From Polyangiaceae bacterium (GTDB lineage Bacteria > Myxococcota_A > Polyangia > Polyangiales > Polyangiaceae): DNA of 64,000 nucleotides. The notes beneath the pieces were generated by a model that worked only from the letters and a program-made list of their open reading frames with translations, was not told where the DNA came from and did not search any database. Below, one piece after another: positions 12,668 through 57,549 of the stretch (position 1 is the stretch's first letter; each line of letters begins with the position of its first letter). The translations under genes were made by a program, and so were the position numbers. The stretch is from the NCBI GenBank assembly GCA_044225865.1, contig JBGAID010000021.1:40280-104279 (forward strand), written 5' to 3'.

Positions 12668-15292
12668 TCAGACGAGGGCGAACGCGCTCACGATCTGCTC
12701 CGATGCAGCCGACCCGCGATAGAGCGGAGCGGCGGCCAGGACCGACCGCACGATCGGCCCCGCCACCTCCGCCTCTTGCGCGTCGAAGCCGCTCAAGATC
12801 GCGGCGACGGAGCTGGGAAGCCCATCCGGCAACGCCTCGCCGAAGGGACGGGTGAGCAATGCAATCGCGAGCGCGGCCCGGCCCGCGTCGTCACCGGTGG
12901 TCGTGCCCACGAGCTTGCGGAGGCTCGCGAGGGTGCGCTTGAGCTCGGCTTTGAAGAGGCCTTCGCGGTGCGAATGCCCCCGCGCGACGAGCGCCGCCAC
13001 CGCCGCGAGGGTGACCGCGAGATCGCCCCCGAAGATCCCGTCTGCCCCTTGCAGGAGGATCAGCGCGCGAAGCCCCGCCTCGTCGTTGGTGAGGGTCGGC
13101 GGCGGCGCCGCCGCGCGCGCGGGCTGCGCCGGGAGCGCCACCGATCGCGGTACGGCGGGCGCGGGGGCCCGCATCGCGACGGGCGGCGGAGGCGGAGGCG
13201 CCGCGGGAGGAGGGGGTGGCGCGAAGCCTTGGGGAGCGGCCATTCCCATCGGCGCCATCCGGGGCGGAGCGGCCATCGAAAGCGGCACCGGCGGCCCGAA
13301 GCCTGGCGGTCCCCCGAAGCCGCCCGCGAGAGGTGGGCCTGCCGAGAACGCCGCGGAGACGACGTTGGCCGGCATCGGGAGGGCGACGGGGATGCTGCCC
13401 GTCACCACCACCCCGCGATCGTCGCCGTGGGTCGCGACGAGGGCGACGGCGCGATTGGCGAGGCCGAACGCCGTTCCCAGCGCCTCCAGCGTCGGATCGT
13501 CGGCAGCATCGAACTTATAAGTGAGCCGCCTGTTCTTGAGCAGCGCCCACACGAGCGGAGCGACGCCTTCCCCTTGCTCGTTCGAGGCGACCGCGCCCAC
13601 GTCCACGCTGAGCCGCAGGTCTTCTCCGTCGGCGCGCTGCCCCGTCAGGACGATGCGGTCGCCCGCCTCGACCGCGCCGCGAAACGCGAAGAGCGCCGGC
13701 TCGCCCCCAAACAGATCGAGCGGCCCCGCGGGCTCGAGCTGCCTCGGCGCGCGCAGATCTCCGGCGTGGTCGACCGCGACCTTGATGGTCGTCCACAGCG
13801 GTGCGTAGATCGCGTTCTTCAATCGACTGAGGGCGCGCTCGAGGTCCTCGTCCGTGGTGACGGGGATGTAGACCCCGCCCCCCGCCGCCGCGAGCGACGC
13901 GAGCATCGCGTGGTTGACCGAGTTGCCGATGCCGATGACGTGGACGCGCGTATCGACGAGCTTCGCCCGCGCGGCCGCGAGCACGGCCTCCGCGTCCCCC
14001 ACATCGCCGTCGGTCATGAAGACCACCACCCGAAGGCGATGAGGCGCGTCGTCGCCCTTGGTCGGCGCCGTCATCGACACCGCCGCGTCTCCAAGACGCG
14101 CGTCCAGGACCGCGCCGATCGCGAGGGACGCGTGCGTCCCCCCTCGGGAGGAGATGCTCCCGATGAAGGCGTCGGCCGCGGCCAGCATCCTGTCGTCGAA
14201 CGGCACCGGGCGATCGGCGAACGCCTCCAGCGCGTCGTCGAACGCGAGGATGTTGAACCGGTCAACGGGACTGAGGGCGCGCAAGCAGCCGCGCACCGCT
14301 CGAATGGCGGAGCTCATCGGACCGGAGGCCATCGACCCGGAGCGATCGACCAAGAAATGAATGGTCCTCGGAATGACCGGCCCCTCGTCGGCATACGCGG
14401 GCGGCACGATCGCAATCGCGGTCGTCGGTCCCGCCCCATCGGGGCCGGGGGTCGCGTCGTAGCGATGCCACAGCACCGGCACTTCACCCGGCGGCCGGTC
14501 TCCAATTTCCAGGATGAAGTCCCGATCGAGCGGCGCGGGCCCCATCTTCACGACCGTCACCCTCCCCTCCCCCGCGCTCGCAGAGGTGGGGTGGCTCGCG
14601 CACTTGAGCTTGGGCGCGCCCGCGGGCCCGTGCGCGACCGAGACCTGGACCTTCGCGCGCGCGGCGAGGATGAGCGGCCGGGGGCGGTCCACCGCCGCCG
14701 CCTCGATCGGCTTGAGGGCGGCAGGATCCTCCACGAAGCGCGGCATGTACGTGAGCGGGACGATCAAGCGGTGGCCGCCGTCCGTCGGGAGCAGCGTCTG
14801 CACCACCCCCAGCACGACCTCGACCCGCTCGCCCGCCTCGATCGGGGCCACGCGCAGCTGCGCGAGGTCCTCGCCCTCCGTCTCCCCGAGGGCGGCCGTC
14901 TTGCCCGCCTCGAGCGCGCGCGTGTACTCGGCAGCGGCCCGGTCGCGCGCGCGGATCTTCGCCGTGAGGGCGCGCCCGCCGACCGTGACCACGAGCTTCG
15001 CGAGCGCGGCCGAAGGCGGCAAAGGAAAGATCAGATCGCCTTCGACGACCCGCCCGAGGTCGTTCTCGAAGACGACGGCGAGCTCCGAGAGCGCGAAGGG
15101 GCCGTCGACGACCACCTCCGCGTCGAGGCTACGCACCGAGAGATGATCCCCCTGGGCCGTCTCGAGCTGCACGCCCCAGCGCCGGTCGCGCCTTCGGGGA
15201 GGCTCCGCCGCCGCGTCGGTCAGCGGCCAGGTGCACACAGCGCAAGCCGTCAGATTGTTCGCGTTCGGCGCCCCGCACCTTGCACAGTTCAT
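12668..15292 (-). CDS. VIT (vault protein inter-alpha-trypsin) + von Willebrand factor A domain protein with N-terminal zinc-ribbon and Pro-rich region
   Basis: N-terminal MNCARCGAPNANNLTACAVC zinc ribbon, then a VIT-like beta region. vWA MIDAS motif FLVDRSGSM...TDG. Pro-rich low-complexity linker (PPPPPAAPPPPPP). Confidence 0.8.
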   Translation of the reverse strand: MNCARCGAPNANNLTACAVCTWPLTDAAAEPPRRRDRRWGVQLETAQGDHLSVRSLDAEVVVDGPFALSELAVVFENDLGRVVEGDLIFPLPPSAALAKLVVTVGGRALTAKIRARDRAAAEYTRALEAGKTAALGETEGEDLAQLRVAPIEAGERVEVVLGVVQTLLPTDGGHRLIVPLTYMPRFVEDPAALKPIEAAAVDRPRPLILAARAKVQVSVAHGPAGAPKLKCASHPTSASAGEGRVTVVKMGPAPLDRDFILEIGDRPPGEVPVLWHRYDATPGPDGAGPTTAIAIVPPAYADEGPVIPRTIHFLVDRSGSMASGPMSSAIRAVRGCLRALSPVDRFNILAFDDALEAFADRPVPFDDRMLAAADAFIGSISSRGGTHASLAIGAVLDARLGDAAVSMTAPTKGDDAPHRLRVVVFMTDGDVGDAEAVLAAARAKLVDTRVHVIGIGNSVNHAMLASLAAAGGGVYIPVTTDEDLERALSRLKNAIYAPLWTTIKVAVDHAGDLRAPRQLEPAGPLDLFGGEPALFAFRGAVEAGDRIVLTGQRADGEDLRLSVDVGAVASNEQGEGVAPLVWALLKNRRLTYKFDAADDPTLEALGTAFGLANRAVALVATHGDDRGVVVTGSIPVALPMPANVVSAAFSAGPPLAGGFGGPPGFGPPVPLSMAAPPRMAPMGMAAPQGFAPPPPPAAPPPPPPVAMRAPAPAVPRSVALPAQPARAAAPPPTLTNDEAGLRALILLQGADGIFGGDLAVTLAAVAALVARGHSHREGLFKAELKRTLASLRKLVGTTTGDDAGRAALAIALLTRPFGEALPDGLPSSVAAILSGFDAQEAEVAGPIVRSVLAAAPLYRGSAASEQIVSAFALV

Positions 15293-38520: not shown

Positions 38521-39441
38521 TTGCCCATGCCCGCCGAAGGGATCCACCTCACCGCGTTTCGAGAAGCGGCGTTCTCCGCGAGAATGCCTCACGAGGCTCG
38601 CCGCGCCGCCGTTCGCTTCGAGGACGTGGGGCGGCTCGGCGCCATCGCCCCCGATCTGCCCTACTTCGACCATTACGCGGAGGAGGTCGTCCGCTACGCC
38701 CTCGGGATCACGCCGCGCCCGAGCCCGCTCGGCGCGATTGTCCATGACGGGGCCGCCCCCCGAATCGTCCACGCCCTCGCGGCCCAGGCGCGCCGCTCGC
38801 GATCCGCCGAGCTCGCTGCCCTCGCCCTCGGGGCCGGGTCCCACGCCGCCATCGATCGCGCGATTCACCCGCTCGTCAACGCGCTCGCTCGACGCTTCGC
38901 CGAGGGTCGAAGCCACGACGCCGCCCACCGCGAGGTCGAGAAGTTTCAATCGATCTGTTTTCACGAGCGCTACTTCGGCAAAGACAGGATGGGCACGGAC
39001 GGTATCGTGCGGCTCGTCCGCGTACCCTGCGCCGAGCTCTTCGCGAGCCCGGTGATTGCAGCCGCCCTCGCCGGCGCGTTCGAAGCCGCGATTGAACAGC
39101 CAGAGCTGAGACCGTCCCGAGGCGACCTGGCCCGGATGGGAAGAGGATACGAGCAGCATGGAAGGCTCCTCGGCAGCCCGCTCGGCAAGCGCCTCGGCCC
39201 CGAGCGCGAGAAGGCCCGGGCCCGCCCCAAGTACATGGCCGGAGCCTGGGGGCGCTTCGAGGACGTGCTCGAGCGCGCCATTGCATCTTCCATCCCCGTG
39301 CTCGAGCGCGTCTGGGAGGCGTGCACGGCGAGCGCGGGCGAGGAGGAGTCGGTCACCCGCGCCCTCGACGGCGTGCTCCCGGCGGGTTCGATCGATTCGA
39401 TGGGCGACGAGGTGGATCTGACCGCGCCATTCATGGCCTGA
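38521..39441 (+). CDS. zinc-dependent phospholipase C-like family protein
   Basis: GIHLTAF..., APDLPYFDH and LGAGSHAAIDRAIHPLVNA resemble the zinc-ligand blocks of Zn-dependent PLC/P1-nuclease-like proteins (HLWI, YYD, LGxxxHYxxDxxxPxH). Confidence 0.45.
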   Translation: MPMPAEGIHLTAFREAAFSARMPHEARRAAVRFEDVGRLGAIAPDLPYFDHYAEEVVRYALGITPRPSPLGAIVHDGAAPRIVHALAAQARRSRSAELAALALGAGSHAAIDRAIHPLVNALARRFAEGRSHDAAHREVEKFQSICFHERYFGKDRMGTDGIVRLVRVPCAELFASPVIAAALAGAFEAAIEQPELRPSRGDLARMGRGYEQHGRLLGSPLGKRLGPEREKARARPKYMAGAWGRFEDVLERAIASSIPVLERVWEACTASAGEEESVTRALDGVLPAGSIDSMGDEVDLTAPFMA

Positions 39442-39514: not shown

Positions 39515-40972
39515 ATGAAGGTCGTCGACTGCATCTGCATCTCCCTCGTCGTCTTCACGAGCGCCTGCATCGAAATCCTGCCGGACCAAGAGGCGCCGAC
39601 CTCGACAGCGCCGGCGCGCCCCCACCGCACCCACCTCCATCGCGGCGGCGCGGCCATCCGCGATCGCCCCGACTCCGTCGCGGATGCGCTCGCGAGCCGC
39701 CTCGCGGATGCGAAATCACCCTCCGCTCGAGCGGCAGCGCGGTTGGAGATCGCGCGCGCGCGGGTGGTGGACGGCGGGAGCGACTGTCAGGTCGCCGCGC
39801 GGGGCCAGGTCGTCTGTCGCGGCCCGCAGCGCGCGCGCGACGCGGTAGACGCTCGCTACCGAGCCGACTTCGAGGGGAGATCTCGGGAGGTCGCGCTCGA
39901 GACCTTCTTCGATCGATGCTTCCGCGGTCTCCCCACCGGGGGCGTCGTGGCCCTCACCGCCGACCCCCTCTGTGCGCTCCTCGCGAGCGAGCTCTCCGGA
40001 GCCGCCGCTCCCGGTGAGAACGAGCTCGAACGTCGAGAGGTCGCAGCCCTGCTGAGAGACGCGGGGGACGCGTTCGCCGGAAGGTCATCCTCCCTCCCTC
40101 GAGAGCCAGGCAGCGGCGACGAAGCGGCGCAGGCCGAGCTCCTCGCAAAAGCCCGCGCCACCTCCGATCGATGGCGGCGTGAGGTCGAGGAGCACGCCGA
40201 GCTCGTTCGGACCGTCGTGGCGTGGGGCTTTCGCTCCAACCACACTCGATGGTCGGCGTCGGACGACGATCGCGTCGTCTGTCGCTCGCGAGTCCCCGAG
40301 GCCTTCGCCGCAGGGCTCCACGCGAGCCGCGGCGCCGCGTTCGGCGACGTTCGCGAGCGAGCGCGCACGAGCCCCGTCCTCTCCCTTCTCCTCGACGTCC
40401 ACTCCATGTGCCATGAGACGGGAGCGTTCGGCGAGGGCCCGTCGAAGACGGTGACCCCCAAGGCCCTTTACACCCGCGGTCGCTACGAGTGGCTGCGCGA
40501 CCCGGCCCGCCAGCAGCCCTATCCTCTGTCGCTGGGCGGGACCGTCGCTACCGTCGCCGCCGTCGCCAAGCAGGGCGACACCGCCCTCGTCACGTTCGCT
40601 CCCATCGAGGACGTCGACGAGCAATTCTCCAATTGCGTCGCCACGAACAAGATCGCCGGCTACGTCCGCAACGGCCGGGACCTCGACGTTCGCTATGAGC
40701 AGCGCTGCCAGGTCCGCAGGCTCAAAGTCATCACCGCGCTCGCCCCCATCACCGTGGACCCAGCCATTGCGGCCGCCCTCGCCCGCGGGACGGTCGTCGT
40801 GCTCGACCGTCCCCTCTCCCGCACGCAGGTGAAGAGCGCGGCCCAATCCCCTCCCCTCTCCGCCGAGCCCGCCCACGTGGAGTGGGCCTTCGCGCGCGGA
40901 GCGGAAATTCGAGCGCAGGTGCCCGACGACGCAAAGGTCGTGGTCGCGCTTCATCATGCGTTGAGCCCGTAG
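39515..40972 (+). CDS. hypothetical lipoprotein (485 aa)
   Basis: MKVVDCICISLVVFTSAC lipobox. Arg/Ala-rich, no recognisable domain. Confidence 0.5.
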   Translation: MKVVDCICISLVVFTSACIEILPDQEAPTSTAPARPHRTHLHRGGAAIRDRPDSVADALASRLADAKSPSARAAARLEIARARVVDGGSDCQVAARGQVVCRGPQRARDAVDARYRADFEGRSREVALETFFDRCFRGLPTGGVVALTADPLCALLASELSGAAAPGENELERREVAALLRDAGDAFAGRSSSLPREPGSGDEAAQAELLAKARATSDRWRREVEEHAELVRTVVAWGFRSNHTRWSASDDDRVVCRSRVPEAFAAGLHASRGAAFGDVRERARTSPVLSLLLDVHSMCHETGAFGEGPSKTVTPKALYTRGRYEWLRDPARQQPYPLSLGGTVATVAAVAKQGDTALVTFAPIEDVDEQFSNCVATNKIAGYVRNGRDLDVRYEQRCQVRRLKVITALAPITVDPAIAAALARGTVVVLDRPLSRTQVKSAAQSPPLSAEPAHVEWAFARGAEIRAQVPDDAKVVVALHHALSP

Positions 40973-41055: not shown

Positions 41056-42006
41056 ATGTCCGCGGCCGCCAAGATCTCCGCCAAACCCGGCAAGTCCGCC
41101 TTGGAAGAGGCGAAGGTCGGATGTGACGGCGGAGACGGCGCCTCCTGTCAGGTCCTCGCCGGCATCTATGACGAGGGCTTCGCGGGTGTCCCGGCAGATC
41201 CGGCAAAGGCGCGCGCTCTTCGCCTTCGCGTGCAAGCGCGTCCCGCCAAAGGCGCGAGCGGGCCGGCCCCCGCGACCGGAATGCCGCCCCTGCGAATTGG
41301 CGGCGTCGTCGTCACCGCGCTCGGCGGGGTCGGCATCGTCTTGGGTGCGACGTTCGGCGTCCTCGCGATGCAGCGTCGCGACGAGAGCAACGAGCCTGGG
41401 CAGTGTGACGAAACGACCAATCTCTGCCGCACCGCCGCGGGGGTAGACCTCCGCGCGCAGTCTCGCCTCTTCGGCGATCTCTCCACGGCCACCTTCGTCA
41501 TTGGAGGGCTCGCCGGCGCCGCCGGCATCGTCCGTCATGCTCGCCGTTCCGATTGGCCGCGCGCCCGTGCGAGCGGCCGTGTCACCCTCGTTCATCGGCG
41601 CCGAGGGGACCTTTTGACCATGACATTCCGTCGATCGACATCGCTCTTCGTCGCGATCCTCGGCACCGGCTGCAACCTCCTCCTGGGCACCGAGGAGGGA
41701 ACGCTGAACGCCGTTGACGGCAGCGGAGGACCGGGCCAAGGGGGCGCGACCACGAGCGGGGGCGGTGGCGGAGAGAGTGTCGGCGGCGCCGGCGCGAGCC
41801 CCGGGGAAGGCGGCCAACCTCCCTGCACCGGGGCTCACTGCAAACTACAGGGAGGATTGTTTGGTCCGTCGCCTCGCCGGTTGGGCGCGTCCGCGTTTGG
41901 CGAGAGAGGCCGAACCGCGCAGCGGTGCTGCTCGAGAATCGCGCTCGGTCATTCAGTCTTGCACGAAGGACACTCGTCGATCGTGAACGCGACCTTCGCG
42001 ACGTGA
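41056..42006 (+). CDS. Sel1/TPR-like repeat membrane protein; 3' end uncertain (possible second lipoprotein ORF from ~41623)
   Basis: CDGGDGASCQVLAGIYDEGFAGVPADPAKARAL Sel1-like repeat, then two TM helices. In-frame MTFRRSTSLFVAILGTGC lipoprotein-type signal at ~41623 followed by Gly-rich low-complexity sequence. The last ~60 codons overlap the effector gene's 3' end and look non-coding. Confidence 0.35.
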   Translation: MSAAAKISAKPGKSALEEAKVGCDGGDGASCQVLAGIYDEGFAGVPADPAKARALRLRVQARPAKGASGPAPATGMPPLRIGGVVVTALGGVGIVLGATFGVLAMQRRDESNEPGQCDETTNLCRTAAGVDLRAQSRLFGDLSTATFVIGGLAGAAGIVRHARRSDWPRARASGRVTLVHRRRGDLLTMTFRRSTSLFVAILGTGCNLLLGTEEGTLNAVDGSGGPGQGGATTSGGGGGESVGGAGASPGEGGQPPCTGAHCKLQGGLFGPSPRRLGASAFGERGRTAQRCCSRIALGHSVLHEGHSSIVNATFAT

Positions 42007-44216
42007 AACTTGTCGCGACGTCGCTGGTCGAACTTGCCGGGGCCCGCGCCGTTGACGAGTCGAAAGAGCTCGTCGACGTTGCTGTCGGCCCAGCCGCGGT
42101 CGGCGACGCTGTTGGCGTCGTAGGATTTCCACCATCCGAACGTGGAGACCATCGCGCCGACCGCGGTGGTGGACGCGTCATCCGGTGATTGAATGAGATC
42201 GACCCCGCACTCGGGAGCGACCTCGTCGATGACCTTCTGGCTCCGCGTGTAGTTGTTCCGTCCGGTGAGCTGGATGTAGCCGCGGCCGCGAAACGTCCAG
42301 CCGTCGCCAGGCTGGTGGTTGCCCATGTCGGAGCTGCCGCTCCGGATGATCATCAGCCGCCCGTCGGGCAGCTTCTCGACGTTGGGCTTCCCTTCTTGAA
42401 GCACCGTGCCGTCTTCGTCCACCCAGCCGCCATAGAGGACGTTCGCGATAGGCTCGGCCTGAGCGTCGCCGTTGCCAGTGCCGGCATACTTGGTCGCGAG
42501 GGATGGGTGGAGCTGGAAGTTGTAGGGGGCGTTCTTGGGCGGCTCCGCGGTGACGTTGGTGAGGTTGTAGTAGCGCTGCCCCGACACCACCTTCCCAGTG
42601 AGCGTATATTGCGTCAGGTCTTCTTCTCCATGCTCGAGGCTCGGCTTCGTCTCCGCCGACACCTGAGCCCAGAAGTGCGCCTTGCGCAGGCAGGTCGCGA
42701 GCTCGAACGGGATGAAGTAGTCATTGAACGCGGCCACCGCCTCCGCGACGTTGGTCGCGGTCCCCTTCGGGAAGAGCTGCTTCAGCTGATCGGCGCTGAT
42801 GGGCGCTCGACAAGCCTTGCAGCCGTTCGGCGCGACCGGGTCGTCCCCAGCGTCCGTGTCGTCCTCGTGCAGCCCGATGATGATCGGGATCTCGGCGGTG
42901 ATGGCGTGGATGACGTCGGGCGAGTAGGGCAGCGCCTGGTGATCGGTATCGAGGACAGGGGCTGGGGCCGAGATGAAGGTCGCGAAAGGACGAAAGAGGA
43001 TGTCCGAAGGCGGCTTGACAGCGTACGCGGGGACGGCGCCGTCTCCCTTCCCGAGCCCGATGCCGAGCTCGGGCCCCTTCGCCATCCCGAGCCAGCTGAC
43101 GTCGGGCGTGTAGACGTTCTCGCCGCTCTGGACGTTGATCGTCCCATAGGGCGGCAGGTCGACCTCCGCGGAGGTATCCATATCGAAGCAGCCCACACAA
43201 TACGTCCGGGGGTGGACGTAGACCTGGTCGGTGACCTTGAGCTGCTCGTGCAACAGGTGAGCGGCGTCGACGCGCGCGGCGTACTGGGTCCGCTTCGTCG
43301 CGTCGTCGCCGAAGCCCACGAAGATGTCTTTGTAGACTTGAGGAAAGTCGGTCGTGGCGTCGGCGAGGGGCTTCGGCGCGGCGCCGGCCTTGTATGGATA
43401 GCCGGACTGGCTCGTCTCGAACGTCAGCCAGCTCTTGTTCTTGTCGCAGTAAACGCGGGTGGGCAGCATCTCGTAGGCCCCCGGCAAGGCCCGCAGGAGA
43501 TCGCGGGACGCCGTCGCGCCGAGCCCCATCCGCAGGCGGATGAACAGCGTCAGCCAATCTCCGGTGTCCAGGGGGACGCCTGCCTTCATCGTCGTGAAGG
43601 CAGAGACGGCGCCGAGGATGGGGCTCCCGACGAGGAACATCGCGCGGACGGATCCGCGGCCGCCGAGCTTGCGAGAGTAGTATCGGCTGACGAGGCCACC
43701 CTGGCAGTGGGCGACGATGATCACCTTCTCGCGTCCGTTCTCGGCGCGCGCGTCGGCGACGACGTTCTGGAGCCTTGTCGCGGCGGTCGCGGCGCTGAGG
43801 CGCCAATCGTAGCCGCACCCGTAGACGACTGCCTTCCAGGCCGGGGTGCCCGTCTCCGCGTTGGCGAGCCCGCTGAGCCTTCCGAGGGCCACGCACAGGT
43901 CGCGGTAGTAGTCCGGGATGAGGTTGGAGAAATGTCGAATGGTCTGATTGTCTGCCTTCTCTGTCGCCGTCGCGTCGGCGAGGGGCTCGGCGGGATCCAG
44001 GGGGGCGAGGTTCATGAGGCGAGCGGTGTCGGCCGCGAAGTCCCCGGGGGCCTCCCCGCCATAGCCACCGCCGGTGGGGTTCCAGACGAGCTTCTTGCTC
44101 GCCGAGTCATAGAGGCGCGTCCCCATGAACCCGGGGACGACGACGATGGGGATTCGGCGTTCTTCGGTGGAGGCGTGGCTCTCTTCGGACGGGCTCGCGG
44201 TGAGGTTCTCGGCCAT
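41949..44216 (-). CDS. bifunctional putative T6SS effector: N-terminal alpha/beta-hydrolase lipase-like domain (Cys at nucleophile position) + C-terminal GH19/COG3179 lysozyme-like peptidoglycan hydrolase domain
   Basis: IVVVPGFMGTRLYD and IIVAHCQGGLVSRYY (nucleophile elbow GHSxGG with Cys replacing Ser). C-terminal GRGYIQLTGRNNYTRSQKV...GVDLIQSPDDASTTAVGAMVSTFGWWKSY matches the GH19-type predicted-chitinase/endolysin motif. 14 nt downstream of VgrG on the same strand. Confidence 0.75.
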   Translation of the reverse strand: MAENLTASPSEESHASTEERRIPIVVVPGFMGTRLYDSASKKLVWNPTGGGYGGEAPGDFAADTARLMNLAPLDPAEPLADATATEKADNQTIRHFSNLIPDYYRDLCVALGRLSGLANAETGTPAWKAVVYGCGYDWRLSAATAATRLQNVVADARAENGREKVIIVAHCQGGLVSRYYSRKLGGRGSVRAMFLVGSPILGAVSAFTTMKAGVPLDTGDWLTLFIRLRMGLGATASRDLLRALPGAYEMLPTRVYCDKNKSWLTFETSQSGYPYKAGAAPKPLADATTDFPQVYKDIFVGFGDDATKRTQYAARVDAAHLLHEQLKVTDQVYVHPRTYCVGCFDMDTSAEVDLPPYGTINVQSGENVYTPDVSWLGMAKGPELGIGLGKGDGAVPAYAVKPPSDILFRPFATFISAPAPVLDTDHQALPYSPDVIHAITAEIPIIIGLHEDDTDAGDDPVAPNGCKACRAPISADQLKQLFPKGTATNVAEAVAAFNDYFIPFELATCLRKAHFWAQVSAETKPSLEHGEEDLTQYTLTGKVVSGQRYYNLTNVTAEPPKNAPYNFQLHPSLATKYAGTGNGDAQAEPIANVLYGGWVDEDGTVLQEGKPNVEKLPDGRLMIIRSGSSDMGNHQPGDGWTFRGRGYIQLTGRNNYTRSQKVIDEVAPECGVDLIQSPDDASTTAVGAMVSTFGWWKSYDANSVADRGWADSNVDELFRLVNGAGPGKFDQRRRDKFHVAKVAFTIDECPSCKTE

Positions 44217-44230
44217 GTTCGATCGCTCCG

Positions 44231-46870
44231 TCAGTTTCCGTGGACTTCGGTCAGCTTCGCCGCGGTCGCGCCGTCGAGATCGCCACTCGGCTCGAGGTCG
44301 TGATCCTCCTGGAAGTCGATGATCGCCTGCTTCGTCTTGGGGTCCATCCCCGGGCCGGCGCCCGTCTCGTAGCCGAGGTTCGCGAGGCGGGTGCGAGCGC
44401 CCTCCGTCGTCGAGGCGGGCTCCGGGTCTTCAATCGCGATGTCCCAGACGTGGCGCTTCCCCGCCGGAGGCTCTCCCTCCCAGAGGACGAGGTGGGCCTT
44501 CGTCGCGCCCTTCGGAATGTCCTGCGCCACCGTACCGTCCCCGCTCGTCGTGCCGGAGTATCTTCGGCCGTCGACCGTCAATTCATAGGGACGGCTCGCG
44601 TAGGGCTGGAAGGCGCCATCGCTCAGCTTCAGCTTGAACGGCTGCGTCTCGGGCGGCGCCGCATCGGCCGTCGCTTTGGGCGGGTCGCCCTCTCGATAGC
44701 CGAGCTTGATCGCGGCCCCCTTCGTGTAGACGTCCTTGGTGAGCTCGAAGCTCGACCCGGTGCCGAAGAAGCGCGCGGCGGGGGCGGAGATCTTCGCCTC
44801 GCCGTCCAGGGCCACGATCGACCTGTCGCTCTTCACGGTGGTGCTCTCGGCGCCATTGACCACGATCTCCTTGGCGGTGATCTCGACACGGTCGGGCGTC
44901 ATGCGCAGCACGCTGTCTCCGCATTGAATGGTCACGCTCCGCTCCGCGTGGAGGACGAGATCCTCATCGGCGCCGAGGTTCCACGAGCCGGTCGCGTGGA
45001 GGGCGGCGGAGGCGGGCGCGTCGATCCCCACATTCACTCCCAGGCCTCCAATGGCGGTCAGGCTCGCGTCGTGATCGACGCGCACGCTCGCGGTCGCGTG
45101 GTAGCGCGCAGTCGCCGCTCCCGTCACCTCGACCGTGTCGACGCCGCCGACGACGTCGGCTCGGTTGCCGGTGACATTGGACGAGACATTCCCCGTCGTG
45201 TCCTCCGCGCGATTGCCCCGCACGACGTCGAGCTTGTCGCCGCCGACGGCGAGGCTCTGCTTGCCCGTCACGCTCTCGCTGCGGTTGCCGCCGATCGTGA
45301 TGGAGCGATCTTTCGCCACGGTCGTCGTTTGGTTCGCCCCGACCGTCTCGGTCAGGTGCTTCTCGGCGCGGAGCTCGATCGCCTCCTCGCCGAGCTTGTC
45401 CTCGAACGCGAGCTCGTTGTAGCCCTTCCCTCCCGGCATGGATCGGGTGCGGATCCCGCTGCGCGTCTGGCCCGACGCCTTCGCGTAGATCGGCGGGTGC
45501 TCCGCGTTGGGGACGCTCCCGATGACGATGGGCCTGTCCACGTCTCCCCCGAGGAAGGCGACGAGCACTTCCATCCCGATGCGCGGAATGAATTGAAAGC
45601 CCCAGCCCGCACCTGCCCACGGCTGCATGACTCGGAGCCAGCACGACGTGGCCCCGTCGAGCTTGCCCTCGCGGTCCCAATGAAACTGCACCTTGATGCG
45701 ACCGAGATCGTCCGTGAACAGCTCATTGCCGGGCGGCCCCACGACGACCGCTGTCTCGAGCACCTGTTGAATCCGCGGAGCGGGCGGTTCGGGCCGGAAC
45801 ACCGTCGTCGAGGGGACGGCGCGAAACGTGTTTCGATAGGGCGGCTCGTTCGACGCGCCGCCGTCGTAGTGAGGGTCGCGACCGAAGTGATCGACGCTCA
45901 CGACCGTGTAGGTCCCGTCGTGCGACTCGAGATCGGCGTCTGCGATCTCGATCCCCATGCCGGCGGCGAGGGACGCGTTCTCGGTGTCCCCGCGCGCCAC
46001 CCACCGCAGGCGCCGGTGCTGCTCGAGGCGCACCGAGGCGAGCGCGCTGGAGGTGGCGATCGGGTCGAGGACGCCGTCGTGATGATATTGCTCGCCCTCC
46101 TCTCCCTCCTTCGCCTCCGCCTTCAGATCGAGCGACGGACGATTGAAGTCGAAGTCCTTCACCACCACCGAGCCCGCGTGCGCGCGCCGCTCGAGGCTGA
46201 ATCGGCGAACGTCAGGGGTGTCGCTCCGTTGTCCATAGTCCTCGCGCGGGTGGAGCTTGGGGGCGCCCGGGACGAGGGCGCACGCGGTCGCGCTGCTCGC
46301 GAGGACGAGCACCTCTTTGCCGCGCTCGTCCGCCTGCTGCTCAAAGAAATAGAAGCTCCCATCCTCGGCGAGCAACCGCTCGACGAAGGCGAGATCGGTC
46401 TCTTGGAATTGGACACAATACTCGCGGTGCGAGATGTCTGTGGCGGACCGGTCGGAGACGTCCAACCCCGAGGCAGAGAGCACCTCGGAGATGATGGCGC
46501 CCGTCGACTTGTCCTGGAAGACGCGGCTGTTCCGCTTGAGAGAGACGAGCGCGAGGCGCGGGACCACCTCGAAGGTGTAGAGCCGCATCTCGGGCCGGCT
46601 CCGGGGCGCGCCCGTGACCGCGACGCTCCGAACCACCCCGTGCACCCACCGCCGTGCCCGAGCGTCGCCGAACCCGAGGTGGCACGTCTTGCCGACGTAT
46701 TGGTCCTCGACCGTCTTCGCGTCGAGGGGGGCGCGCTCCACTCGAACCTCGAAGCGATAGGGGGTCGAGATCGCCTCGACGCCCGAGAAGCTGGTCACGA
46801 CGAGGTGCTCGGGGGCCCCGTCCACGTCGAATTCGAACAGCTCATCCTGCGCCGCGGCCATGCGCGCCAT
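44231..46870 (-). CDS. vgrG: type VI secretion VgrG spike protein with C-terminal peptidoglycan-binding domain
   Basis: ATG 46870 (MARMAAAQDELFEFDVDGAPEHLVVTSFSGVEAISTPYRFEV); ATG 46861 is an alternative. gp27-like and gp5-like OB/beta-helix regions (VVGPPGNELFTDDLGRIKVQFHWDR...). C-terminal TRLANLGYETGAGPGMDPKTKQAIIDFQEDHDLEPSGDLDGATAAKL PG_binding_1-like domain. The 5' extension in the track ORF is junk. Confidence 0.85.
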   Translation of the reverse strand: MARMAAAQDELFEFDVDGAPEHLVVTSFSGVEAISTPYRFEVRVERAPLDAKTVEDQYVGKTCHLGFGDARARRWVHGVVRSVAVTGAPRSRPEMRLYTFEVVPRLALVSLKRNSRVFQDKSTGAIISEVLSASGLDVSDRSATDISHREYCVQFQETDLAFVERLLAEDGSFYFFEQQADERGKEVLVLASSATACALVPGAPKLHPREDYGQRSDTPDVRRFSLERRAHAGSVVVKDFDFNRPSLDLKAEAKEGEEGEQYHHDGVLDPIATSSALASVRLEQHRRLRWVARGDTENASLAAGMGIEIADADLESHDGTYTVVSVDHFGRDPHYDGGASNEPPYRNTFRAVPSTTVFRPEPPAPRIQQVLETAVVVGPPGNELFTDDLGRIKVQFHWDREGKLDGATSCWLRVMQPWAGAGWGFQFIPRIGMEVLVAFLGGDVDRPIVIGSVPNAEHPPIYAKASGQTRSGIRTRSMPGGKGYNELAFEDKLGEEAIELRAEKHLTETVGANQTTTVAKDRSITIGGNRSESVTGKQSLAVGGDKLDVVRGNRAEDTTGNVSSNVTGNRADVVGGVDTVEVTGAATARYHATASVRVDHDASLTAIGGLGVNVGIDAPASAALHATGSWNLGADEDLVLHAERSVTIQCGDSVLRMTPDRVEITAKEIVVNGAESTTVKSDRSIVALDGEAKISAPAARFFGTGSSFELTKDVYTKGAAIKLGYREGDPPKATADAAPPETQPFKLKLSDGAFQPYASRPYELTVDGRRYSGTTSGDGTVAQDIPKGATKAHLVLWEGEPPAGKRHVWDIAIEDPEPASTTEGARTRLANLGYETGAGPGMDPKTKQAIIDFQEDHDLEPSGDLDGATAAKLTEVHGN

Positions 46871-46939
46871 CTTCGATGCCGCCACCACGCCGGGCAAGGG
46901 CCACGCGCGGAGTGACAGTTCGCTCCCAATCTGGCAACA

Positions 46940-47662
46940 ATGCCCCCCGTGAGGTCTGCACCGAAATGGCGGCTCTATGCGACCTGGGAGCCGCGGCCGG
47001 AGCCGCCCGCGGACGCGGTCGATCGGCTCCTCGTCCTCTTCGACGCCCTGCGGGCAGGCTCCGATCGCGCTTGGACCGCCGCCCTCGGCAAGTCGGCCCA
47101 GCCCCACCCTTGCCGCGACGGCGCTTCCGTCGAGTGGGCGCTCCGCGCCGGCAGCTTTCCACTCGAGCGACGCCCTCGCGCGGGCGACTTCAGCTGTCAA
47201 AGCTTCTATCTGGGCACCTTCCGCCGCTGGGAGAGCAAGCTCACCGTCGCGTGCGGCGCCCGCGACAAAGTCGCCAATATCGAGACTCCCAACCGAATCG
47301 AGATCTCGGGCACCCACGAGCGGGAGCCCCAATCCCTCCGCGAGCTCCTCGTCGTCGTGATCGCCGCCTTCCGCCCCGCGTGGGCGTTCATCGCTCGTGG
47401 CGACGCCCCCCAGTTTCCCGTCCCCGGAATGGCCACCCCCACCGTGGGATGGATCACCTATCTATCGTCCGCGTTCGGCCCGGTCCCGCCTCACCCGTGC
47501 CTCAGCCCCGTCCCCGTCCCGCGCTTCGGCACGCTGGTCCAAATCGCCAAAGACGGAGAGAGGATCGAAGAGAGCTCCGTCGCTCAGCTGCGCGCGGTGA
47601 CGCGAGCATTGAAGAGCGCAGGGGTGTTTCGATCAGAACGTGAGTCGAAGCGAGAGCCCTGA
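46940..47662 (+). CDS. hypothetical protein divergent from vgrG (240 aa)
   Basis: Strong GC3, W/Y/F-containing composition. 70-bp divergent intergenic region with vgrG. No domain recognised. Confidence 0.5.
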   Translation: MPPVRSAPKWRLYATWEPRPEPPADAVDRLLVLFDALRAGSDRAWTAALGKSAQPHPCRDGASVEWALRAGSFPLERRPRAGDFSCQSFYLGTFRRWESKLTVACGARDKVANIETPNRIEISGTHEREPQSLRELLVVVIAAFRPAWAFIARGDAPQFPVPGMATPTVGWITYLSSAFGPVPPHPCLSPVPVPRFGTLVQIAKDGERIEESSVAQLRAVTRALKSAGVFRSERESKREP

Positions 47663-53529: not shown

Positions 53530-54162
53530 TCACCAGGAGGCTTCGACCGCCCCATTGGCGATGTCCTGGAGCGACACGCGCACCCGCCCCGTCACGCCGA
53601 AGTGCTCGAAGACCCCTTGGACCGTGCCCACCTGGTACGTCTCGATGAACGCCGGCAAATCGAAGCACTCGAACACCAAGCGACGCGCCTCTCTCGAGAC
53701 GACGCGGACCTCACCGAAGCTCATGCTCAGGCGATAGGCCTTCGGTGCGAGCGCCAGCACGTCGCCGACCGAGTCCCCCACCGCCAGCACGAGGACGCGT
53801 CCCACGTGGCTCCCGAGGAACGTCGAGAACGACGTCCTCCCGATCTCCGCGAGCGCCTCCCCCAATGCGAGCCGCGGGTACACGCGGCGCGCGACCTCCA
53901 CCGTGAGCCGCAGGTTGTCGCGCATCGGATAATCGAGGAACGGCGTGTAGCGGCGGGCCGGGATCCCCGCCGCCTTGGCCAGCTCTGCCGGGCTCCCCGC
54001 CGCGGCCCCGAGCGCGAAGATCGTCTTGAAGAACATCCCCTTGCACGAGGCGTCGCGCGGAAGGCGCTCCAAATGAGCGTCGAGATCCACCGGCTCGCGC
54101 AGCCGCGGGGGCGCGAGCTCACGACCGGCGCTCGGCTCTCTCTCTCTTCGCCTCTCCACCAT
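53530..54162 (-). CDS. TIGR02265/DUF2378-like Myxococcales-restricted family protein
   Basis: Internal ATG (MVERRRE...). Family-like length (~210 aa) and C-terminal ...TYQVGTVQGVFEHFGVTGRVRV... pattern. The 5' part of the track ORF is junk. Confidence 0.45.
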   Translation of the reverse strand: MVERRREREPSAGRELAPPRLREPVDLDAHLERLPRDASCKGMFFKTIFALGAAAGSPAELAKAAGIPARRYTPFLDYPMRDNLRLTVEVARRVYPRLALGEALAEIGRTSFSTFLGSHVGRVLVLAVGDSVGDVLALAPKAYRLSMSFGEVRVVSREARRLVFECFDLPAFIETYQVGTVQGVFEHFGVTGRVRVSLQDIANGAVEASW

Positions 54163-54320
54163 CGCGGATTGCCGACCATAGCGAAAGCCTCGAACGACCG
54201 CGAGACCCTTGGGTCCACCCCCAACCAACGGCGCCGTCCCTACGGCGCAATGGGCGTCTTCCTCGGGGACGCACCGCCTGAAATTGGGCTCACGCGCTGA
54301 CCGCCTGATCGTCGGGGCTC

Positions 54321-55376
54321 TCAGCTGGCCGCGCGCATCAAGTTGACCCCCCGAAAGCACCCCTTCTTGCCAGTCGCGCCTTGGACGGTGTGCCACTCCA
54401 CACGCGCCCCGACGACCTTCTCTCCGAGTCGTGCTTGGACGAACGAACCCATGGGATACTTTGCGCGCTGTCGGAGGACCCGCGTCGCGAGCTCCGTCCC
54501 CCCCTTCGGCACCGCGCCCTTCCAATACTTCCACCCCACCGGTGGCGCCGGGTTGGTGGGACAGGGCGTTCCTGGTGGGTGGGCCGGAGGAACGCGCGGA
54601 TCGATGACAGCAACCTCTTCATCTCCGGCCGGAGGCGGCGGCGGACTCCAGGCGCTGGACGTAGCCCCGACCGCGAGCCGATTGGCAGGCGCTTCCAGGC
54701 GGCTCGCTGGAGCGGCCCTCGACGGATCGGCGACCGACGCGACGTCGAGATCGACCAGCAAGCTTCCGCCTGGCACAGCGATTCGGCAGTTCTGAGCCCA
54801 TTGCCACGCCACCACGGCCGGCGTGGCGGCGCTTCCCTCCATCTCCTCCCTGAAGGGTGCCGGCTTCGTCCCGCCGACGTCGGCGAGCCTGAACTTGAAG
54901 ATCCATAGAACGAGCCCCGGGACGGCGCTCGACGCGCTCTTCGCGCTCGTATGAGAGAGGTAGGCGCCCGGAGTGTATCCGCCCGCCGCGACGTGAGCGC
55001 ACCAAGCCTGCAAGTACGCGACGAATGCCGGAGAGAGCGGCCCACCCACTTCGATATCGAGATAGAGCACGGCGCCGGCAGGAAACCCCGCCTTCGCCGC
55101 CAATAGACAGGCAGCCTTGCCGTCGCGGCGGCCATGCGCCGCGTCCACCTGGTGAGAGCCGGGCCCCGCCTCTTGCTGTCCCACGTACAGGGGAGCGAGG
55201 CCCCATCCGCCGCTGACCAAGCTGGCGCGCTTGGACATCCAAGACGTACCGCGGTGCGACGGCGCAGGACCCAAGTAGAACCCGCACCACCGCAGGTTCG
55301 TCTTCGATCGCAAGTGCGCCATGACCCCGTCACCCGGATACACGGCCGTATCGATTCCCGCGAAGCCCATCATCAC
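54321..55376 (-). CDS. DUF1906 (glycoside-hydrolase-like TIM barrel, Rv2525c-like) domain protein
   Basis: MMMGFAGIDTAVYPGDG...WCGFYLGPAPSH... resembles the DUF1906 N-terminal block. Pro-rich linker and C-terminal small domain. Confidence 0.55.
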   Translation of the reverse strand: MMMGFAGIDTAVYPGDGVMAHLRSKTNLRWCGFYLGPAPSHRGTSWMSKRASLVSGGWGLAPLYVGQQEAGPGSHQVDAAHGRRDGKAACLLAAKAGFPAGAVLYLDIEVGGPLSPAFVAYLQAWCAHVAAGGYTPGAYLSHTSAKSASSAVPGLVLWIFKFRLADVGGTKPAPFREEMEGSAATPAVVAWQWAQNCRIAVPGGSLLVDLDVASVADPSRAAPASRLEAPANRLAVGATSSAWSPPPPPAGDEEVAVIDPRVPPAHPPGTPCPTNPAPPVGWKYWKGAVPKGGTELATRVLRQRAKYPMGSFVQARLGEKVVGARVEWHTVQGATGKKGCFRGVNLMRAAS

Positions 55377-55678
55377 CTCCCACCACCCCTCGACATCGAA
55401 CTGCCATGCCGCGTCGGGGTCTCCAGAAGCGAGCGTACCTGAATCTCGGTTCCGGCCACCGGCGGAACGTCCCGCACCGAGCGCTCACAGCTTGGAGCTC
55501 CCACGACCACCGCCGCTCCGCCGCGACAGCTTCCGCCGTCCTGGAGCGGCGCCCGATCCCGCTTCTCAAGCTACCAAGGATATGTTCCACTCATCCGCGT
55601 TCAGGGGGTGGGGAACGGGCGTGGTCGAAAGGGGGCCATTGCCACTGCCTTCCGCTGAACCCGCGGCATGGAGGCCAT

Positions 55679-56719
55679 ATGAAGGACAGCGAATTCATCC
55701 TCGACGACCTTCCCGACTACATTCGAGCGTCGATGGAGCTCCGGGACAAGTGGCTGAAGAGCGCCTCGAGCGGTGGCTTCGAGTTCGTCTTCTCCGACGT
55801 GACGGCATGGGCTCCCGGCCAAGTCGTAACAGTCGCCTTTCTCGGCGGCGATGAAGCGCTGCGCAAGGACATCGCAGACGCAACGACGCAAATCACCGAG
55901 GCATGCAATCTCAAGCTCGACTTTTGGACCGACGGGTCACGCACGAAGTTTCGAGAATGGTCCGAGGCGGACACTGCGTACAGCGCGGACATACGGGTCA
56001 GCTTCGACATGGGCGGCTATTGGTCGCTCGTCGGACAGGACAGCATCAACACGTCCATCGCCGGACCAGGCCAGCCGGTAGGGGGCCGCCCCAATCAGCG
56101 CAGCCTGAACCTCGGGGGGTTCGCCGCCTCCAGGCCGGCCAGCTGGAAGGGGACGACTCGCCACGAGTTCATGCACGCCGTCGGCTTCCACCACGAACAC
56201 CAAAACATGCGCGGCCCCGCCGAGGTCGAGTTTCGCTGGGAGGACGACCCTGGCTACACGCCCACGACCGACGGCCACGGCACCTTCGTCACCGACAACG
56301 GGGGACGTCGACCCGGAATCTACACATATCTCGCCGGTCCGCCGAACCGCTGGTCCAAGGCGAAGATCGACTTCAACCTCCGAACGACCGACAACCCCGA
56401 CGCCGTGGCGAGCGCCTTCGACAACGCGTCGGTGATGCTCTATCGCTTCCCGGCGCTCTTCTACAAGCGCAATCCGAGCCCGGCCGCCCCCGCTGGCGAC
56501 GGGCAAGATCTTTCGGAAGGCGACAAGCGCGGCCTGCGGCTCCTCTACCCGTTCCAGGAGGTCCGCGCCGTCGACAATCTGCTCGAACGCCGTTCCCACT
56601 TGGCCAAAGCAGCCGCTGGCGGCTCTGGGAGCGCGGGCCTCGAATCGGCACGTGACACCGGCGAGCCCGCCCTTGTCGAAAGCATCCGAACCGCATTGAA
56701 GAACAACACGAAGCGGTAG
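55679..56719 (+). CDS. astacin-like (M12A) zinc metalloprotease without signal peptide
   Basis: ATG 55679 with GGAGG SD 5 nt upstream. HEFMHAVGFHHEHQNM = HExxHxxGFxHEH zincin/astacin motif. SVMLY Met-turn. No N-terminal signal peptide. 170 bp upstream of the eCIS cluster on the same strand. Confidence 0.75.
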   Translation: MKDSEFILDDLPDYIRASMELRDKWLKSASSGGFEFVFSDVTAWAPGQVVTVAFLGGDEALRKDIADATTQITEACNLKLDFWTDGSRTKFREWSEADTAYSADIRVSFDMGGYWSLVGQDSINTSIAGPGQPVGGRPNQRSLNLGGFAASRPASWKGTTRHEFMHAVGFHHEHQNMRGPAEVEFRWEDDPGYTPTTDGHGTFVTDNGGRRPGIYTYLAGPPNRWSKAKIDFNLRTTDNPDAVASAFDNASVMLYRFPALFYKRNPSPAAPAGDGQDLSEGDKRGLRLLYPFQEVRAVDNLLERRSHLAKAAAGGSGSAGLESARDTGEPALVESIRTALKNNTKR

Positions 56720-56890: not shown

Positions 56891-57523
56891 TTGGAGCGCA
56901 TCCTCGCGCTCGGGTTTCGCAATCGGGTAGGTCAGGGGATGATCGGGACAGTTCTCGCGTTCGTGCGAAGACAACTCGACGACTTTTTGCGCGCCGAGTT
57001 TCCGGCTGGGAGTGACCCTGTCGGCGACAAAGTCGTCTTCCCCGACGGCGACAAGATGGATCCGCTCACCTTCGCGCCCGAGGCGATATCTCTCCTTTTG
57101 CTCAACCTCGAAGAGGATCGGGTCCTCAGGCCGCCCGACTTGCATTCCAGGTCCCTGCCGAACGAGCCTCCCGCGCGCGTCCACCCGGAGATCCGCCTTA
57201 TCCTCAACCTCCTCTTCGTCGCGCGCTTCAAGCAATACGAGGGGGCGTGGAACCACTTGACCAAGGTCCTCTCCTTCTTCCAGTCACATCCGCTCATCGA
57301 AGGGGGCGCCGCCGAGCTCCCCACCGGAGTCGAGCGGCTCACGTTCGAGCTCGTGACGCTGCGCTTTGCCGAGCAGAACGAGGTCTGGAACGCGCTGCGC
57401 GCCACCCAGCATCCGTCTCTTCACTACCGATTGAAGATGGTCGTGCTTCGCGATGCGAAGCCGGACCCGTCGCCGCAGATCATCAATCCTGTCGACATCC
57501 GGGTCGCCCGCTCGACCCCCTGA
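56891..57523 (+). CDS. DUF4255 (Afp16/Pvc16-like) contractile-injection-system tail terminator/cap protein
   Basis: MIGTVLAFVRRQLDDFLRAEF... N-terminus typical of DUF4255. First gene of the eCIS cluster. Start TTG 56891 or ATG 56939. Confidence 0.7.
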   Translation: MERILALGFRNRVGQGMIGTVLAFVRRQLDDFLRAEFPAGSDPVGDKVVFPDGDKMDPLTFAPEAISLLLLNLEEDRVLRPPDLHSRSLPNEPPARVHPEIRLILNLLFVARFKQYEGAWNHLTKVLSFFQSHPLIEGGAAELPTGVERLTFELVTLRFAEQNEVWNALRATQHPSLHYRLKMVVLRDAKPDPSPQIINPVDIRVARSTP

Positions 57524-57549
57524 CCCCAACCTCGTGAGCCTCGAGCACC

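Follow-up and report, generated by a model that had tools for sequence, protein, structure and literature searches.

Which part of a VgrG-linked effector would be toxic, and what serves as its partner in the producing cell, when the serine of its lipase-like domain has been replaced by cysteine? The question is raised by a pair of genes in a 64,000-nucleotide (nt) stretch of DNA from a Polyangiaceae bacterium (assembly GCA_044225865.1, contig JBGAID010000021.1, positions 40,280 to 104,279; hereafter the window). There, a vgrG gene of a type VI secretion system (T6SS) is followed by an effector gene that encodes an N-terminal α/β-hydrolase domain (N-domain) and a C-terminal GH19-type domain (C-domain). 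An initial annotation, made from the letters alone, had described the pair as a module separated from T6SS core genes and had suggested a thioester-forming or altered-specificity hydrolase. Its statements on the sequence all proved right, with matches well beyond what chance would give. In this study, the locus was read as an orphan T6SS "spike-cargo-partner" island of a Polyangiaceae-like myxobacterium. The muramidase would be the toxin, the N-domain a module for loading and partner binding, and the Cys a tolerated replacement. We put the probability of this reading as a whole at about 0.6.

Organization of the three-gene module

The vgrG and effector genes run in the same direction on the minus strand in the list of open reading frames (ORFs), and the short spacer between them, as given in the initial annotation, was borne out when the sequence was read (Table 1). 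By this layout they are an operon-like pair. A gene for an Imm52-like protein lies divergently upstream of vgrG, and the DNA between the two start codons is presumably a shared promoter region. Exactly these three genes are common to the window and two orthologous loci, one in the Polyangiaceae metagenome-assembled genome (MAG) GCA_046351325.1 (L004) and a second one (L006). The flanks on both sides of the module differ among the three. All three genes are under purifying selection, with ratios of nonsynonymous to synonymous substitution rates (dN/dS) of 0.09-0.23 across all parts at a synonymous divergence (dS) of about 1 (0.9-1.4 in the pairwise comparisons of the three orthologues). In the 64-kb window, Pfam found no T6SS core gene among the roughly 45 ORFs supported by third-position GC content, and in the window the module is thus an orphan.

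VgrG matched the T6SS VgrG model TIGR03361 with E = 5e-143 (477 bits, cut-off 186) and TIGR01646 with E = 3e-91. The Pfam families Phage_GPD (E = 7e-60), Phage_base_V (E = 6e-16) and Gp5_trimer_C (E = 2e-23) were also matched. Behind this core follows an extension that contains the C-terminal peptidoglycan-binding domain of the initial annotation, recovered as PG_binding_1 above the Pfam cut-off (E = 3e-8 to 1e-7); a DUF2345 match in the extension was below the cut-off (E = 0.003). In two paralogous islands, identity to the extension was 61% (L007) and 52% (L008) vs 45% and 44% for the core. The C-terminal 279 residues were still detectable at 25-31% identity in L009-L012, where the same effector family follows. 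The dN/dS of the extension (0.09-0.12) was the lowest of the module. Such a pattern would be expected of a docking region specific to the effector. Since the extension is conserved and co-varies with the effector family, it is most likely the part that keeps the effector attached to the spike.

Related islands were found at several other loci. The MAG that contains L004 carries at least three intact VgrG-effector islands (L004, L007 and L008), and the effector gene directly follows vgrG in L004 and in L006-L011. L007 encodes VgrG, an effector of 717 amino acids (aa) with the elbow AHSQGG and a GH19 domain (P0022), an Imm52-like protein and a DUF4280 protein. L008 encodes VgrG, an effector with CHGQGG (P0023) and an Imm52 gene that overlaps the effector stop codon. 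In L009 (a Byssovorax MAG) and L010, a VgrG-linked effector with Ser is followed by Imm52, and in L091 Imm52 lies directly downstream of a VgrG-linked effector with Gly. PAAR-like DUF4280 genes adjoin the L007, L009 and L010 modules. These genes, and the several intact islands in one related MAG, would speak indirectly for a T6SS core apparatus (TssA-M, Hcp) encoded in the same genome.

The N-domain is Tle4-like

The effector has no signal peptide. Its N-terminal half matched LCAT (PF02450) above the Pfam cut-off (E = 5e-8), and generic α/β-hydrolase families also matched. A profile of 23 compact N-domain homologues (A3) matched Tle4 (PDB 4r1d_A) with E = 1e-28 over essentially the whole domain (profile positions 5-419); LPLA2, LCAT and small bacterial lipases trailed far behind. 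The two effector domains were modelled separately with AlphaFold2. The model of aa 1-460 had a mean predicted local distance difference test (pLDDT) of 79.5 and a predicted TM-score (pTM) of 0.85, and its top Foldseek match was again 4r1d_A (E = 1e-14), followed by LPLA2 and LCAT. The lipase-like α/β-hydrolase of the initial annotation thus held and could be refined: by profile and predicted fold, the N-domain is specifically Tle4/TplE-like. Short Pfam "Tle3" matches of the effector were below the cut-off (E = 6e-4) and were dismissed.

4R1D is the Tle4-Tli4 (TplE-TplEi) complex of the Pseudomonas aeruginosa H2-T6SS (PMC5611513, PMC4832377), and Tle1-4 are defined by a GxSxG motif (PMC4832377). 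Like Tle4/TplE, the N-domain is a VgrG-linked LCAT-like α/β-hydrolase with a cap and without a signal peptide, and it is homologous over the whole domain. Unlike in Tle4/TplE, the Ser of GxSxG is Cys in the window effector and both orthologues, and a muramidase domain is added at the C-terminus. Immunity to Tle4/TplE is provided by Tli4/TplEi in the periplasm (PMC5611513). Here, no Tli4-like gene adjoins the module, and an Imm52-family protein of the cytoplasm takes the place of the partner.

Asp392 (in GDGAVP) and His426 were invariant in A3, and 57 of 70 family-conserved columns were intact, with deviations that include N142, S145 and M172. The dN/dS of the N-domain (0.14-0.16) was similar to that of the VgrG core. 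The strings quoted in the initial annotation were all present in the effector, namely PIVVVPGFMGTRL (aa 23-35), AHCQGG and, in the C-domain, GRGYIQLTGRNNY (aa 644-656).

An LCAT-like domain also occurs in relatives without a T6SS link (P0051, P0085, P0086, P0090 and P0102), where it is fused to OmpA, PG_binding_1, hemopexin or Peptidase_S8. As judged from their predicted domains, such fusions are a recurrent link of the LCAT-like domain to the cell envelope or peptidoglycan.

The residue at the nucleophile position

The nucleophile elbow of the effector reads A-H-C171-Q-G-G (aa 169-174), as the initial annotation had noted. The identical protein is on record in three independent Logan assemblies. 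Two orthologues (P0002 and P0003) share 76% and 73% identity with the N-domain as query and 81% and 74% over the full length, and have the same architecture and the same Cys. Because the three orthologues use the codons TGC, TGT and TGC, Cys171 is real and no sequencing error. The three assemblies, the orthologue codons and a dN/dS of about 0.15 also rule out a pseudogene. The closest Ser paralogue has AGC and the closest Gly paralogue GGA, and therefore Cys and Gly are each one first-position step from AGC.

To survey the family, a word-indexed search returned 21 relatives, and an exhaustive search of representatives returned 2831 at E ≤ 1e-3 and 78 at E ≤ 1e-30. The residue aligned to position 171 was read in 165 sequences, of which four were not aligned there. 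The others divide into 135 with Ser, 22 with Gly and 4 with Cys. Among the 161 aligned homologues Ser thus prevails, but it is not uniform. The four Cys sequences are the window protein, P0002, P0003 and an independent one, P0054 (AHCLGT). In a neighbour-joining tree, the Gly state was scattered over many branches of the T6SS-linked clade. Both Gly variants whose gene context was examined (L008 and L091) retained VgrG and/or Imm52 neighbours. This suggests that a nucleophile-independent function may be widespread in the family. The Gly relatives (AHGMGG) include P0013, P0023, P0039-P0041, P0047, P0048, P0055, P0056, P0062, P0065, P0070, P0077, P0081, P0083, P0089, P0095 and others.

A metagenome scan did not enlarge the Cys clade: apart from one distant relative, its matches were fragments from the organism of the window. 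A scan of a genome collection with the family profile, in which the patterns required AHS, returned mostly distant non-T6SS LCAT-like lipases from many phyla; L011 and L012 were the useful loci from it. By a rough estimate from dS, Cys would be kept in all three lineages with a probability of about 1-2% if any residue is allowed at position 171, and of about 0.18 if only small residues fit the strained elbow. The data therefore show constraint and do not prove a catalytic role of the Cys.

The C-domain is a predicted GH19-type muramidase

In a phmmer search against PDB sequences, the C-domain matched 8xcl (the C-terminal domain of TseP, TseP-C; E = 3e-9), 8p8e (4e-9), 9ms6 (1e-8) and 4ok7 (2e-7), with an overall range of 3e-9 to 3e-7. 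The Pfam family Glyco_hydro_19 (PF00182) was matched below the cut-off (E = 0.006). The AlphaFold2 model (pLDDT 78.8, pTM 0.81) matched the GH19 endolysins 8p8e and 9eoi and TseP-C (8xcl) in Foldseek with TM-scores normalized by the target, TM(target), of 0.72-0.81; 4ok7 was also among the matches, and GH19 chitinases stood lower in the list. The GH19/lysozyme-like domain proposed in the initial annotation was therefore borne out by sequence matches and by fold.

The C-domain was aligned with 40 homologues annotated as "putative chitinase" (A5). E522 and E532 (E62 and E72 of the fragment) fell on two Glu columns (HES...EEN) with at least 90% conservation, and T651 is the invariant Thr of the GRGxIQLTG/QLT motif. 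E532 was kept in all three orthologues and in P0022. Both catalytic Glu residues are thus present, about 10 residues apart, together with the Ser/Thr of the QL[ST] motif that marks this type of lysozyme. The dN/dS of this domain was 0.09-0.15. By sequence and model, the C-domain is a GH19-type muramidase that keeps its catalytic residues, with predicted enzymatic activity.

Two clade-specific insertions, at about aa 541-568 and 608-627, had pLDDT values below 50. The domain is flanked by two CxxC pairs that are conserved in the three orthologues and could be a Zn clamp or form disulfides in the prey periplasm. At the equivalent place, P0022 has a Cys-rich CSCGCPDCC stretch. Compared with the GH19 phage endolysins (KTN6 gp46, 8P8E; 9EOI; SPN1S, 4OK7), the fold is shared (TM(target) 0.69-0.79) and the Glu...Glu...Thr arrangement and GRGxIQLTG are conserved. 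Unlike them, the C-domain is not phage-encoded, is fused to a T6SS cargo domain and has about 50 extra residues in two low-confidence loops. With its unusual loops and CxxC clamps, it is a candidate lytic enzyme.

A lysozyme of this type in a dual-function T6SS effector already has a precedent. TseP of Aeromonas dhakensis is a chimeric amidase-lysozyme effector whose C-domain (8XCL) has the active residues E654 and E663, and mutation of E663 abolishes activity (PMC11893102). TseP is bound by VgrG; for secretion its N-domain plays a structural part, and neither of the two catalytic Glu residues can be spared (PMC11893102). The window effector is likewise a VgrG-carried two-domain chimera with the same type of lysozyme at its C-terminus, and 8xcl is the best sequence match of its C-domain among solved structures. 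The N-domain of TseP, however, is a Zn-dependent amidase, whereas that of the window effector is a Tle4-like hydrolase, and the two insertions and flanking CxxC pairs also set the GH19 domain here apart from TseP. TsiP neutralizes both TseP domains (PMC11893102), whereas the partner here is an Imm52-like protein without a signal peptide.

The C-terminal part is not the same in all relatives. In P0023 (L008, 10001-12391), the closest Gly paralogue, and P0072, another C-terminal region with an SxHxxGxAxD...HxH-like motif replaces GH19. In P0023 this region has a weak Peptidase_M15_3 match below the cut-off (E = 0.003). The C-terminus of the effector therefore looks polymorphic, with alternative cell-wall hydrolases.

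The Imm52-like partner

The initial annotation had found no signal-peptide-bearing immunity gene and had named two candidates, the divergent gene upstream of vgrG and a convergent ORF at the 3' end of the effector gene. The divergent gene held up as a partner. Its product matched Pfam Imm52 (PF15579) with E = 4e-10 (40 bits, cut-off 25) over profile positions 68-231 of 233. In L004 and L006, orthologues with 69-71% identity occupy the same divergent position, and a word-based homologue search with the protein returned only three close orthologues. Related effector genes in L007, L008, L009, L010 and L091 are each followed directly by a paralogue, and L011 has at that place a gene weakly similar to Imm52. 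The protein from L007 is 33% identical to that of the window (E = 2e-37) and matches Pfam Imm52 with E = 4e-5.

Altogether, effectors of this family have an Imm52-like gene beside them in 8 distinct loci, two Gly variants included. These loci cover effector identities of 33-100%, two orientations and three C-terminal architectures, and in several of them the Imm52-like and effector genes are less than 10 nt apart or overlap. The dN/dS of the gene was 0.20-0.23. On this comparative evidence, the Imm52-like gene is a true, conserved partner of the effector family. Its conservation across the loci indicates that the partner goes with the Tle4-like N-domain, irrespective of the C-terminal toxin and of the residue at the nucleophile position.

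The seven aligned Imm52-like proteins have no signal peptide and no hydrophobic N-terminus, and the window ORF cannot be extended upstream. No conserved gene with a signal peptide adjoins the module, in line with the initial annotation. Imm52 has been described as the immunity family of Tox-REase-5 nucleases (PMC3482391; bioRxiv 10.1101/835710). As in those pairs, a small cytoplasmic α+β protein is encoded beside a T6SS toxin and passes the Pfam Imm52 threshold. Unlike in those pairs, the neighbouring toxin is a Tle4-like hydrolase; Pfam found no Tox-REase-5 domain in the effector or VgrG, with the effector domains scanned to E = 10. No description of an Imm52-lipase pairing was found in the literature searched. 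The protein also matched, along its full length, PDC-M17B (E = 2e-11), which PADLOC lists as a candidate defence component, and, weakly, the uncharacterised PDB entry 4RHO (E = 0.004).

The convergent ORF did not hold up. The ORF that L004 has at the equivalent place is not similar to it (E = 10), and L006 has a different sequence downstream. Its GC content at third and second codon positions was 0.76 and 0.62, vs 0.81-0.91 and 0.45-0.57 in confident genes. The ORF, or an internal "lipoprotein" start within it, was therefore ruled out as an immunity gene; we judged it to lie outside the module, and it may not be a gene. A six-frame search downstream of the effector with tblastn and a profile gave no decayed Imm52 gene.

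Proposed mechanism and alternative explanations

We believe that the VgrG trimer would form the T6SS spike and that the effector would ride on the VgrG extension. The most likely lethal activity would be that of the GH19 muramidase, which would act in the prey periplasm and cut the glycan strands of the cell wall there, as its homology to TseP-C and the endolysins suggests. The Tle4-like N-domain would be the family-defining module, which travels with the VgrG extension and the cytoplasmic Imm52-like protein. Its role would be independent of the nucleophile: loading onto VgrG, binding of the Imm52-like partner and possibly binding to the membrane or envelope. Ser was replaced by Gly many times and by Cys twice with the gene context intact, and therefore the indispensable role of the N-domain is read as nucleophile-independent. 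With Gly in 22 of the 161 aligned relatives, the nucleophile appears to be repeatedly dispensable, so the Cys need not signal new chemistry. Cys171 would be a replacement that arose in one step (AGC to TGC) and was tolerated, and some acyl-transfer activity, weak or altered, may be left. In the producer cytoplasm, the Imm52-like protein would bind the N-domain, either as an immunity protein or as a stabilizing or loading chaperone. Of this picture, the gene content, the domain identities, the residue states, synteny and selection are shown by the data, whereas docking, the site of action and the role of Imm52 are inferred.

Several observations weigh against this interpretation. The N-domain preserves Asp392, His426, a PGxMGxRL motif and most of its conserved columns, and its dN/dS of about 0.15 would be equally expected of an active enzyme. 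The Cys has been retained in three lineages at dS of about 1 and across a synonymous TGC/TGT change, which is compatible with selection for Cys. A periplasmic immunity gene for the muramidase was not found next to the module, and this is unexplained if sister cells are targeted.

The first two of these observations also bear on the explanation that survives best after ours, which is close to the suggestion of the initial annotation and which we regard as possible but not favoured: Cys171 is itself the nucleophile, and the N-domain, with an active Cys-His-Asp triad, is a (phospho)lipase, thioesterase or acyltransferase whose acyl-enzyme is a thioester. In that case the effector would be bifunctional, attacking membrane or lipid as well as the cell wall. 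A thiol needs a reducing environment, so such an effector would act on the cytoplasmic side. This would explain why the partner protein is cytoplasmic, with the Imm52-like protein as its immunity protein. The invariant Asp and His, the intact fold, the purifying selection on the N-domain and the second, independent Ser-to-Cys event in P0054 all fit an active enzyme. Natural Cys nucleophiles are also known at the α/β-hydrolase elbow, for example in PhaC (PMC5509742), and highly active Cys lipases have been engineered (PMC6642262); one of them, Cys-CALB (PDB 6ISR), was among the fold matches. Both resemble the window effector in having Cys at the elbow with His and Asp partners. However, neither is a lipase-type toxin, and Cys-CALB required further mutations for activity (PMC6642262), a compensation that is not demonstrable here. 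When Ser is simply exchanged for Cys in a lipase triad, activity is generally lost unless other changes compensate (PMC6642262). In this family the residue at the nucleophile position has changed repeatedly, and two Gly variants, which could not form an acyl-enzyme, keep the same Imm52-like partner and VgrG context. The retention of Cys is not statistically compelling by the rough estimate for small residues. No description of a Cys-nucleophile T6SS lipase was found in the literature searched.

A very unlikely explanation concerns the partner. The Imm52-like gene could be an unrelated orphan immunity gene against the Tox-REase-5 nucleases of competitors, with the true immunity gene elsewhere. 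The definition of Imm52 as a Tox-REase-5 partner (PMC3482391; bioRxiv 10.1101/835710), the lack of this domain in the effector and VgrG and the divergent orientation of the gene in the window would agree with it. Such an orphan, however, would not be expected beside one effector family in 8 distinct loci down to 33% effector identity, nor so close to or overlapping the effector gene in several of them, nor within a module beyond which the flanks of orthologous loci differ. Least probable of all is that the VgrG-effector pair serves the extracellular contractile injection system (eCIS) of the PVC/Afp type 10 kb away, which would account for the lack of T6SS core genes in the window. Against it, the eCIS comes with spike and tip genes of its own, and the score of VgrG on the T6SS model is 477 bits. 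In addition, no eCIS genes lie within 10 kb of the orthologous and paralogous modules on other contigs, and several of these modules have PAAR-like DUF4280 genes instead.

The module would act in the manner of known chimeric cell-wall effectors on VgrG, such as TseP, with an N-domain that derives from Tle4. Taken one by one, its domains are ordinary. What was not expected is that a Tle4-like domain is paired with Imm52 in a conserved way and that the nucleophile has been replaced again and again. The family consistently breaks both rules of Tle1-4, the serine motif and the periplasmic immunity protein. Beyond the reading preferred here, with the muramidase as toxin and Cys171 as a tolerated replacement, we tentatively suggest, as a conjecture more doubtful than not, that Polyangiaceae have a distinct class of Tle4-derived T6SS effectors with an obligatory cytoplasmic Imm52 partner and an optional Ser. 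Within this class, either the Cys clade would be the first natural Cys-His-Asp lipase-type T6SS toxin, with thioester chemistry and a cytoplasm-side target, or the Imm52 fold would be a new T6SS adaptor or chaperone for a pseudo-lipase that carries cell-wall hydrolases of exchangeable type (GH19, M15-like). Should the Cys be catalytic, the effector would be a natural example of a Cys-lipase chemistry so far obtained by directed evolution, and its target would be a lipid or acyl group in the cytoplasm. Should the N-domain instead be a pseudo-enzyme, an enzyme toxin would have been turned into a delivery scaffold for swappable hydrolases, and the Imm52 fold would extend beyond nuclease immunity. 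Either outcome would refine the prediction rules for T6SS effectors and immunity genes, especially in predatory myxobacteria, for which few effectors are known.

Surroundings of the module

Table 1. Positions in the window of the module, its parts and the surrounding genes
Feature	Position	Strand	Description
vgrG	44231-46870	-	879 aa
VgrG core, aa 1-600	45071..46870	-	gp27-like hub, OB domain, gp5-like trimerisation/β-helix; Pfam and TIGR03361
VgrG C-terminal extension, aa 601-879 and stop	44231..45070	-	weak DUF2345-like stretch, linker/β-rich region, PG_binding_1
PG_binding_1, aa 826-873	44252-44395	-	
Spacer vgrG/effector	44217..44230	-	14 nt, CGGAGCGATCGAAC; GGAG, Shine-Dalgarno-like, 9 nt 5' of ATG
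Effector gene	41949-44216	-	755 aa
Effector N-domain, aa 1-455	42852..44216	-	Tle4/TplE-family LCAT-like α/β-hydrolase with cap
Cys171 codon	43704-43706	-	TGC
Asp392; His426	43041-43043; 42939-42941	-	invariant in A3
Effector C-domain, aa 461-755	41952..42836	-	GH19-type muramidase (predicted)
C-domain catalytic residues Glu522; Glu532; Thr651	42651-42653; 42621-42623; 42264-42266	-	alignment A5
CxxC pairs flanking GH19 domain, C466/C469; C749/C752	42810-42821; 41961-41972	-	conserved in three orthologues
Divergent intergenic region	46871..46939	.	69 nt between start codons of vgrG and Imm52-like gene; putative shared promoter region
Imm52-family protein	46940..47662	+	240 aa; divergent from vgrG; Pfam Imm52 PF15579
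Convergent ORF	41056..42006	+	316 aa; overlaps effector 3' end by 58 nt; no Pfam family
eCIS cluster	56891-63916	+	PVC/Afp-like, to window end
DUF2378 protein	53530-54534	-	upstream of eCIS
Rv2525c-like protein	54321-55376	-	glycoside-hydrolase-like
Astacin-like protein	55406-56719	+	metalloprotease
Phospholipase C-like gene	38521-39441	+	weak, Zn-dependent type; convergent with effector
Lipoprotein-like protein	39515-40972	+	485 aa; N-terminus MKVVDCICISLVVFTSAC
Protein without Pfam match	33495-37388	+	1297 aa
Vault-like protein	30710-33658	-	982 aa
VIT-VWA protein	12668-15292	-	874 aa

The eCIS cluster had not been mentioned in the initial annotation. It encodes Pvc16_N, a sheath, three gp19-type tubes, CIS_tube, a VgrG-like spike (Phage_base_V/GPD), gp25 and CIS_spike_tip. 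We regarded its proximity to the VgrG island as coincidental because the cluster supplies a spike and a tip itself and because VgrG islands related to this one occur elsewhere without an eCIS. The three genes directly upstream of the cluster, which encode the DUF2378, Rv2525c-like and astacin-like proteins, could be eCIS-associated cargo or regulators. The DUF2378 gene, together with the relatives from Polyangiaceae and Byssovorax, suggests that the DNA is of myxobacterial origin.

On the other side of the module, the phospholipase C-like gene, the gene for the lipoprotein-like protein and that for the 1297-aa protein are absent from the orthologous loci and were found on no contigs but those of the same organism. 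Farther away, the minus strand encodes the VIT-VWA protein and a protein that matches MVP_shoulder (E = 1e-8) and Vault_3 (E = 2e-8), two domains of the Major Vault Protein. Homologues of vault proteins are unusual in bacteria.

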